The notes beneath the pieces were generated by a model. That model made no database searches, was not told where the DNA came from, and was given only the letters and a program-made list of their open reading frames with translations. From a phage, in sequence record PZ324410.1: 47,561 nt of DNA; one strand, written 5' to 3'. The position numbers and the translations under genes are program-made. Position 1 is the first letter of the stretch. Each line of letters opens with the position of its first letter. Positions 27,951-28,914 of this stretch are shown in pieces.

Positions 27951-28426
27951 TGGCTATCATCAAATACCCTGACTGGCTGCCACTCGCACAGCGCGCCAGC
28001 AAAAACCTTACTTTTCAAACCCCTTTCAGGAAGGATACCCCAGCCGTTGGGGCGCCGATATTTCAAAAATTAACGACTGACGTCGCAGTCACATGGAGCA
28101 TTACGTGGGTCTTTACACTGGAACAAGAGCGGGCTTTTATGCAGTGGTTAAGGAGTTCAAAATACCTCAACCACTGCAACAACTGGTTCACCATGATGAT
28201 TGACCTCGGCGGTAGTGGATTGCAGGAGCAGACGCTGCACTTTACCGATTACCCGGTGCAGACAAGCATTGATGGCGGCGTGGTTACGTGGACTGGCAAT
28301 GTCATCGCTAAAAAGCTCAATAACACGATGGATGAGTTTGATGATGTTCTGGTTGAGCTTGATTACAGATGGTATAGCTTCCTTGATGAAACTGTAAGCA
28401 GAGAACTGCCAGAACACAGCAATTAA
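27950..28426 (+). CDS. minor tail protein (lambda M-like position)
   Basis: 158-aa ORF immediately after tape measure. Confidence 0.55.
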   Translation: MAIIKYPDWLPLAQRASKNLTFQTPFRKDTPAVGAPIFQKLTTDVAVTWSITWVFTLEQERAFMQWLRSSKYLNHCNNWFTMMIDLGGSGLQEQTLHFTDYPVQTSIDGGVVTWTGNVIAKKLNNTMDEFDDVLVELDYRWYSFLDETVSRELPEHSN

Positions 28427-28914
28427 CAAAACCTGCTAAACTCACCGAAAATGACTTTTGCGGCGTTTACATATGCATTATGGGCTTGCTTTGGTGACAA
28501 GAACAAGCCCAAATATTTCTGCTTCCCATTTATCTTTATGCTTGCCTGCCATTTTCCACTTTGCTTGTGAAAGCTAACACCTTTGTATCCTGAGGTGTTG
28601 TTTGCAGCCTTGATTCTATTCATTGCATTTTGAGATAGTGTAGCCTCTCTTAGATTGACGATTCTATTATCACTCCTAATACCATTGATGTGATCTATTG
28701 CCTTTGATGGCATCTCGCCTTTGACATACAGCCACGCTAAATGGCTTGCTTGATATCTAACTCCATTAATCATTATTGTGATGTGGTTGCTTTTATTTTT
28801 CCTTCCAGCAATATCACCTTTTTTCACAGAAATTGATTTGTTAACAAGCCATTTAAAAACACCACTATCAGCGTTGTATGATAGTAACGACTTAAGCTCT
28901 TTTTGCGTAAGCAT
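28423..28914 (-). CDS. HNH homing endonuclease (HNH + AP2-like), antisense within tail module
   Basis: ORF 28423..29037 trimmed to Met with GGAGG RBS; [18 protein letters not shown] and GYKGVSF motifs. Confidence 0.65.

Follow-up and report, generated by a model that had tools for sequence, protein, structure and literature searches.

Genes encoding nucleases of the HNH(N)-AP2 family, described by Magnani et al. (2004), are present in six to eight copies per genome in the Xanthomonas siphophages Xp10, OP1 and Xop411 and are also found in T1, Rtp, T5 and RB43 (PMC2248197). In the Xanthomonas phages, whose siphophage genomes are about 45 kb long, the copies are scattered and their locations differ from one relative to the next; Lee et al. 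saw no conserved flanks around them and proposed a sequence-independent transfer (PMC2248197). The number and location of I-HmuI-like HNH genes also vary between close small siphophages of the lactococcal genus Skunavirus, and marker exclusion has been shown experimentally for some of these enzymes (Yu et al. 2025; PMC12724721). Intron-less homing between genes is known from the T4 enzymes MobE, SegB, SegF and SegG, which cut the endonuclease-lacking genome near the insertion point and whose action is accompanied by flank co-conversion and localized marker exclusion (PMC2790892, PMC2330249, PMC2988022). In this study, we analysed a stretch of phage DNA of 47,561 nucleotides (sequence record PZ324410.1), which as a whole is called the window below and in which four dispersed genes of the HNH(N)-AP2 type are found; they are designated H1 to H4 by position (Table 1). 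Based on comparisons with related phages, we consider it likely that these genes form four independently acquired, free-standing homing-endonuclease cassettes that spread by homing. H1-H4 themselves are uncharacterised but belong to a well-known kind of gene: small siphophages with several HNH-AP2 genes have been described since 2007.

The phage was placed in the Skatevirus cluster, the small siphophages around Salmonella phage Skate, whose members include IME207, Vi II-E1, SeSz-2, Akira and Bas77-81 (BASEL preprint, 10.1101/2024.09.12.612763). In seven queries covering about one third of the window, its sequence is 100% identical to that of Escherichia phage ECO95 1-6-1 (OR845258.1), a record of 47,511 bp without annotation, i.e. 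50 bp below the window length. No terminal redundancy of the window was found. The comparisons of site occupancy reported here cover about 150-200 related records.

All four open reading frames (ORFs) that a first-pass annotation of the window had assigned to one family are present, and each exceeds the gathering cut-off of the Pfam family HNH_3 (PF13392; 24.8 bits), with scores of 42.8, 85.9, 51.8 and 77.3 bits for H1, H2, H3 and H4, respectively. All four match phrog_99 ('HNH endonuclease'), with E values from 6e-43 (H1) to 8.5e-69 (H3), and the orthologue of H3 in Skate is annotated as an 'HNH homing endonuclease'. The four copies share 33-55% identity in tblastn comparisons inside the window (E = 1e-15 to 1e-56), a similarity far beyond chance, and no fifth copy was detected in the window by tblastn with H1-H4 and nine HNH proteins of relatives as queries. 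H1-H4 are members of the HNH(N)-AP2 family and, like the genes of Xp10, OP1 and Xop411, combine an N-terminal D-H...N...N 'HNN' nuclease lacking Cys dyads with a C-terminal AP2 region and carry counterparts of the boxes HRLAW, DNR, NLRE and EN (PMC2248197). The motif quoted in the first-pass annotation proved approximately right, with HRVIWE, HRIVWE, HRVIWY or SHLAWL followed by (I/L)DHIN..(R/K).DNR..NLR and (S/T)G..GV.(W/F); of the size range given there, 164-183 amino acids, the upper end stands and the lower has to be corrected to 160.

None of the eight proteins aligned (H1-H4 and four relatives) has lost the catalytic D-H...N...N residues; Asp74, His75, Ile76, Asn77, Asp82, Asn83, Arg84, Asn87, Leu88, Arg89 and Asn96 (H3 numbering) are invariant. 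A profile built from this alignment matched I-HmuI of Bacillus phage SPO1 (1u3e) with E=3.6e-5, and in a pairwise alignment with 1u3e the DH, N(LR) and (E)N positions fall on D74/H75, N87 and N96 of I-HmuI. Of these, D74, H75 and N96 of I-HmuI are reported to be catalytic or metal residues (Shen et al. 2004). Profile matches to the designer beta-propellers Cake and Scone were discarded; they result from a short N-terminal hairpin motif whose weak repeats were added up, and no single stretch rose above the threshold. For H3, alone among the four proteins, an AlphaFold2 model was obtained and compared with the PDB using Foldseek. In this model (mean predicted local distance difference test score 84.6), the nuclease part adopts a beta-beta-alpha-metal fold, with strands at 72-75 and 88-91 and then a helix at 93-100, and strands 113-116, 121-128 and 131-138 together with helix 141-161 form the AP2 part. 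The top match of the model is I-HmuI (1u3e_M, E=2.1e-4, prob 1.00), followed by AP2 domains, and the C-terminal part superposes on the plant AP2 domains of TEM1 (1.3 Å over 51 columns) and AtERF1 (1gcc, TMt 0.71). The C-terminus of H3 also matches the AP2 domain of WRI1 (7wq5) in a phmmer search (E=6e-5), and H1, H2 and H4 align with H3 through the AP2 region. H1-H4 are each predicted to join a His-Me finger nuclease related to I-HmuI to an AP2 DNA-binding domain at the C-terminus. I-HmuI (1U3E) is the best match of the window proteins in both sequence profile and fold; it differs from them in being the product of a gene within a group I intron and in its C-terminal DNA-binding region, whereas the window genes are free-standing and encode AP2. 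The overall TM-score between I-HmuI and H3 is about 0.4, partly because of the differing domain arrangement.

Located between host genes or at their ends, each of the four copies forms an ORF of its own and has a separate ribosome-binding site; that of H3 is GGAGG, 5 nt before the ATG at 28914, and that of H1 is GAGGAG at 5445-5450. A search of the window with Rfam revealed no intron model and only a tRNA. Intron-encoded genes were ruled out on the grounds that no such model was found and that every junction falls at the end of a gene or between two genes. Across nine insertion sites in the phage cluster, proteins from the same site are 89-100% identical, compared with 30-57% between sites; H2, for instance, is 54.5% identical to H4 and 57% identical to Skate gp34. 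Clustering of the proteins by insertion location is also described in the Skunavirus study, which concerns a different host and phage group (PMC12724721). Because they share only 33-55% identity with each other, H1-H4 are, as judged from sequence, old paralogues that were probably acquired separately and not duplicates arising in this genome; recent in-genome duplication is ruled out when these values are set against the 89-100% identity to same-site orthologues elsewhere. The earlier description of the genes as paralogous thus holds at the level of the family, with each copy having its closest counterparts at the same site in other phages.

None of the four cassettes is fixed among the relatives, each being present in two to seven distinct phages in the records compared. 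Sites 1, 3 and 4, occupied by H1, H3 and H4, show presence/absence polymorphism with precise boundaries. The carriers span Skatevirus, Shuimuvirus, Segzyvirus and Macdonaldcampvirus and include a Klebsiella phage, and the subset of cassettes differs by relative, with Skate having only that of site 3 and SeSz-2 only that of site 4. Between the window and the other carriers the cassettes are 92-100% identical and the flanks 60-95%, and the identity reaches its maximum inside the cassette, the distant Klebsiella phage included. Unlike the Xanthomonas genes, each of these lineages occupies one precise junction across genera and is accompanied by a replacement 3' end of the host gene: at sites 1, 3 and 4 the upstream host gene has only 50-67% nucleotide identity over its final 55-120 nt, with the amino acids kept. 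The ratios of nonsynonymous to synonymous substitution rates (dN/dS) are 0.03-0.08 for H1, 0.03-0.11 for H3 and 0.05-0.14 for H4, and these genes are therefore under purifying selection. Taken together, the comparative data support homing at the three sites, and the excess of cassette over flank identity, the patchy distribution among genera and the low dN/dS agree with the first-pass proposal of intron-less homing by free-standing endonucleases.

Selection of this strength also bears on the possibility that the nucleases are kept for the benefit of the phage, as weapons against co-infecting relatives or for marker exclusion, recombination or anti-defence, with spread as a side effect. A dN/dS of 0.03-0.14 is stronger constraint than a purely parasitic, decaying gene would need. 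Marker exclusion is documented for related enzymes (PMC12724721), and a T-even homing endonuclease has been reported to be tied to the amplification of an anti-defence gene (PMC13096335). Each cassette is, however, absent from about 95% of the relatives, which argues against a generally needed function, and we regard a benefit to the phage as an unlikely explanation for the presence of these genes. Sequence data cannot separate it from selfish homing, because the molecular mechanism is the same in both.

The best defined insertion is that of H3 at site 3, where the gene order is tape-measure gene, M position, H3, L position and NlpC/P60 (K-position) gene. The neighbours had been called M-like and L-like, which is correct for their positions; homology to lambda M or L has no Pfam support, the M-position gene (27950-28426) being without a Pfam family and the L-position gene (29093-29563) giving a weak DUF1833 match. 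H3 had also been singled out as the antisense copy; it does lie on the minus strand, as does H2, which makes two copies antisense to the late operon. Homology to the empty alleles of Sa179lw and SeSz-2 ends at 28373 and restarts at 29076. In the empty allele, the stop codon of the M-position gene and the start codon of the L-position gene overlap as TAATG, and this M/L junction is uninterrupted in 179 records versus 10 with the cassette. In the occupied allele, the M-position gene loses nucleotide identity at its 3' end, from about 90% down to 50-67%, and the peptide runs from DYRW into a similar 17-residue tail, the empty alleles having DYRW followed by FGWLDDVVNRDLPEYP and the stop. Full-length matches to the tract 28374-28426 occur in cassette-bearing records only. 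The stop codon of H3 overlaps that of the M-position gene by 2 nt, within a 4-nt stretch (28423-28426) common to both ORFs. At the other boundary, the last A of the stop codon in the M-position remnant CTTCCGGAGTACCCATA is the A of ATG 29093, and the remnant CTTCCGGAGTACCCATAA, which comes last in the occupied allele, holds the GGAG ribosome-binding site of the L-position gene (ATG 29093). The cassette is 93-100% identical to those of LPSTLL, Skate and IME207, with flanks at 64-97%.

Other inserts were noted around this junction. The M-position gene of Bas77-79 (28002-29375 in Bas77) has about 300 extra codons at the junction of the H3 cassette (457 versus 158 amino acids), and the sequence of the Bas77 junction is similar to the replacement 3' end of the H3 cassette. 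Vi II-E1 (locus L005, 1477-2127) and LPSTLL (locus L019, 755-1405) have an antisense 'amidase' gene, not present in the window, between the tape-measure and M-position genes; the Vi II-E1 record notes its similarity to phage P1 KilA. Since LPSTLL has both this gene and the H3 cassette, it contains two adjacent antisense inserts.

At site 1, the Mu-F-like head gene has a divergent stretch of about 120 nt at its end, and the ancestral end and terminator return after H1, the remnant 6008-6030 falling within a bidirectional terminator at 6013-6037. The cassette is present in 5 of about 170-200 records and the site is uninterrupted in most of about 197; the orthologues of H1 in Segz_1 and ST46 are 98 and 92% identical, respectively. 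A different endonuclease of 299 amino acids, 36% identical to the Skate gp09 'endonuclease', is located at the site-1 junction in Klebsiella phage SCNJ1-C (locus L024, 1260-2318). This insert shares the left flank and the TGATATAAT motif with site 1, which suggests that one selfish gene may have displaced another at this junction.

At site 4, a host gene of roughly 50 codons diverges in its 3' part, at about 45991-46110. The ancestral second half of this gene returns after H4, with the insert 46000-46770 standing in for 41 bp of Skate. This host gene is uninterrupted in 115 records versus 8 with the cassette, and the orthologues of H4 in SEzh_1, SeSz-2, NX263 and Vi II-E1 are 93-97% identical. 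The location of H4, about 240 bp upstream of the gene at the small-terminase position (47007-47432) and with the large terminase gene (1-1425) next, would fit a packaging helper, an HNH protein acting with terminase as in HK97-like phages, and in relatives other HNH genes, Bas77_0001 and Skate gp01, do lie close to terminase. H4 is nevertheless an HNH_3 and AP2 protein and not an HNH protein of the PF01844 type, it breaks up a small host gene, whose remnant persists, it is absent from the 115 relatives with the uninterrupted gene, and Bas77_0001 has no homologue in the window; a role in packaging is extremely improbable. A terminase-associated HNH protein like HK97 gp74 was ruled out for H4 by the domain type and the absence from 115 records. 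The cassette also holds a 44-residue ORF (46163-46297) with a CxxC...CxxC pattern that overlaps the start of H4 and weakly matches phrog_16925, to which no function is assigned.

The following mechanism, the cleavage, target-site location, immunity and homing event of which we infer from the alleles compared, would account for the structure of the junctions. During co-infection with a relative lacking the cassette, the enzyme would recognise an extended sequence of the cassette-less allele where the host gene has its 3' end, so that the target of each enzyme would lie in the ancestral 3' end. The enzyme would nick or cut this empty site, and recombinational repair would copy the cassette together with nearby flanks from the carrier genome. 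The left side of the cassette would supply a sequence-divergent but protein-conserving 3' end for the host gene, and on the right side the short ancestral remnant would keep the ribosome-binding site, terminator or gene tail needed by the downstream gene. This arrangement plausibly destroys the target site, and, with its target sequence split and half of it replaced, the carrier genome is probably protected from the enzyme. The T4 free-standing enzymes, for which comparable events are described, differ from those of the window in nuclease subfamily and DNA-binding module.

Several points weigh against homing by HNH(N)-AP2 enzymes at all four sites. The AP2 family (PF00847; cut-off 33.3 bits) scores just under its gathering cut-off in H2 (22.9 bits), H3 (31.9 bits) and H4 (23.6 bits), and in H1 AP2 is not reported by Pfam. 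I-HmuI nicks DNA, and a nick is less well established as the starting point of homing than a double-strand break. Modules exchanged by ordinary mosaic recombination, with no nuclease involved, could also raise the identity of the cassettes. Site 2 has no clean empty allele and looks like an exchanged segment more than a clean insertion; besides ECO95 and S.Kent, its segment is found in PSH-1 only, at 99.3%, so that there is a single other carrier. Finally, the divergent 3' tracts are similar to alleles of other lineages, that of site 1 being closest to the native allele of SCNJ1-C (86%) and that of site 3 similar to the Bas77-type allele. Hitch-hiking donor flanks are therefore a simpler origin for the tracts than an evolved immunity device, and the idea that the 3' ends arose as de novo immunity mutations was softened in view of these two likenesses.

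The resemblance of site 2 to a module swap would also suit immobile passengers, acquired by illegitimate or modular recombination and no longer cutting anything. So would the unrelated inserts held by the same junctions, namely a KilA-N-type gene (Vi II-E1 and LPSTLL), the extra C-terminal domain of Bas77 and a T5orf172-like gene (SCNJ1-C), from which it follows that the junctions are permissive hot spots. Passengers of this kind would not be expected to have intact catalytic residues in every copy, a dN/dS of 0.03-0.14 and identical precise boundaries across genera with identity peaking inside the cassette, and we consider this explanation very unlikely. The 90-residue ORF at 23931-24203 (minus strand), which travels with H2 at site 2, has a weak, sub-threshold similarity to tail-spike N-terminal domains.

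Spread of the cassettes by homing, if correct, would mean that phages of the Skatevirus cluster have been colonised by HNH-AP2 homing genes as have T1-, T5-, Xp10- and Skunavirus-type phages, which would explain part of their mosaicism. The uninterrupted alleles offer concrete candidates for the targets of three site-specific nucleases that are as yet uncharacterised. The anatomy of the junctions, with a new 3' end and a retained remnant carrying the ribosome-binding site, indicates how an element may enter translationally coupled essential genes without inactivating them.

Table 1. Nuclease genes, cassettes, leaders and related sites in the window (aa, amino acids; RBS, ribosome-binding site).
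Feature	Positions	Strand	Description
H1, HNH(N) endonuclease with AP2-like C-terminal region	5456-6007	+	183 aa; downstream of Mu-F-like head-morphogenesis gene
H2, HNH(N)-AP2 endonuclease	24275-24757	-	160 aa; in minus-strand accessory cluster between major tail and tail-assembly genes
H3, HNH(N)-AP2 endonuclease	28423-28914	-	163 aa; between two minor tail genes after tape-measure gene
H4, HNH(N)-AP2 endonuclease	46263-46766	+	167 aa; upstream of gene at small-terminase position
Site-1 cassette region	5230-6037	+	From junction alignments and identity drop
Site-1 parts		+	Divergent 3' end of gene 4324-5358 (about 5230-5358); leader B 5359-5455; H1; ancestral remnant 6008-6030
Site-1 carriers besides window	5347-6005 (cassette)		S.Kent, Segz_1, ST46
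Site-2 replacement segment, 963 bp	23917-24879	-	90-aa ORF 23931-24203 and H2, replacing Imm and hypothetical genes (641 bp) of relatives
Site-3 cassette, 702 bp	28374-29075	.	Stands in for 32 bp of uninterrupted allele
Replacement 3' end of M-position gene	28374-28426	+	Cassette-borne, sequence-divergent
Ancestral M-position 3' remnant CTTCCGGAGTACCCATA	29076-29092	+	Identical to end of uninterrupted allele
Site-3 carriers besides window			S.Kent, LPSTLL, Skate, PJN025, IME207, Klebsiella phage SCNJ1-C
Site-4 cassette region	45961-46864	+	Small host gene 45961-46110, 44-aa ORF 46163-46297, H4, ancestral remnant 46773-46864
Site-4 carriers besides window	46000-46770 (cassette)		S.Kent, SEzh_1, SeSz-2, NX263, Vi II-E1
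Leader A upstream of H3	28915-29070	-	156 bp; RBS 28920-28924; hairpin 28933-28987, then U-run
Leader B upstream of H1	5359-5455	+	TATAAT 5359-5364 directly after host stop; nested hairpin 5371-5416
Empty site 5	21080-21135	+	In Akira and about 90 other records, different antisense HNH-AP2 cassette with leader A (window-equivalent 21135)
Empty site 6	20716-20738	+	In IMGVR_UViG_3300045988_016905, third antisense HNH-AP2 cassette with leader A core (20737 junction)

The most unusual by-product of the analysis is a conserved leader of about 110 nt that precedes three different antisense cassettes. The 150 bp upstream of H3 are 90-98% identical to the region before a different antisense HNH-AP2 gene, that of site 5, the product of which is 40% identical in protein, and the enzyme at site 6 is 45% identical in protein. 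The core of this leader (leader A) comprises a palindrome over TATAAT, a 14+7-bp hairpin, a U-run and the ribosome-binding site; in the window, TATAAT (as reverse complement) is at 29047-29052 inside the palindrome 29043-29057. Copies of the core lie at three translationally coupled junctions of the late structural operon (window 28915-29070 on the minus strand, L012 1494-1663 and L014 3200-3380). Across 11 copies the sequence of the core hardly varies, and a single compensatory pair was seen. A scan of IMG/VR for leader A returned 5 loci, too few for real covariation statistics. The predicted RNA fold of leader A has an energy of -48.8 kcal/mol (z=-3.06). In a promoter scan of H3, the best match was 9/12 (TTGAAA-17-TACACT); the assignment is uncertain because the perfect TATAAT lies only 12 nt from TTGAAA. 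Leader B, upstream of H1, folds with z=-2.99, occurs in about 25 records and shares 79-97% identity with the sequence preceding Skate gp01 (L001 47363-47393 plus 1-54), a different HNH-AP2 gene that is 35% identical in protein and lies directly upstream of the large terminase gene. No Rfam family was matched by leader A or B, an E-value search giving only a chance-level miRNA match (E=0.84), and a self-search revealed no second copy of the cassette upstream regions within the window. We tentatively propose a portable family of antisense cassettes in which leader A might act as a transferable attenuator that keeps nuclease expression low inside an essential operon. If so, the leader would be a previously undescribed regulatory module travelling with homing endonuclease genes, and shared leaders of this kind, if functional, would offer a handle on how phages restrain such nucleases.

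Some further features of the window were noted. A gene at 22022-22687 on the minus strand encodes a 221-residue Rha and KilAC antirepressor-like protein and lies antisense between the tRNA and major tail genes, a position taken by small plus-strand genes in Skate and Bas77. The single tRNA, tRNA-Met (CAU) at 21538-21614 (minus strand), lies between the head-tail connector and major tail genes, and its equivalent in Skate is annotated as tRNA-Ile. The tape-measure gene (25575-27950) encodes 791 amino acids here, compared with 827 in Bas77, 980 in Sa179lw and 1096 in Skate. The J-like central tail protein, a single ORF of 828 amino acids in Skate, is broken up in the window, where the two ORFs 29935-31383 and 31244-32548 overlap, and the frame change near 31220-31227 (region 29935-32548) represents either a real frameshift or a sequencing error.

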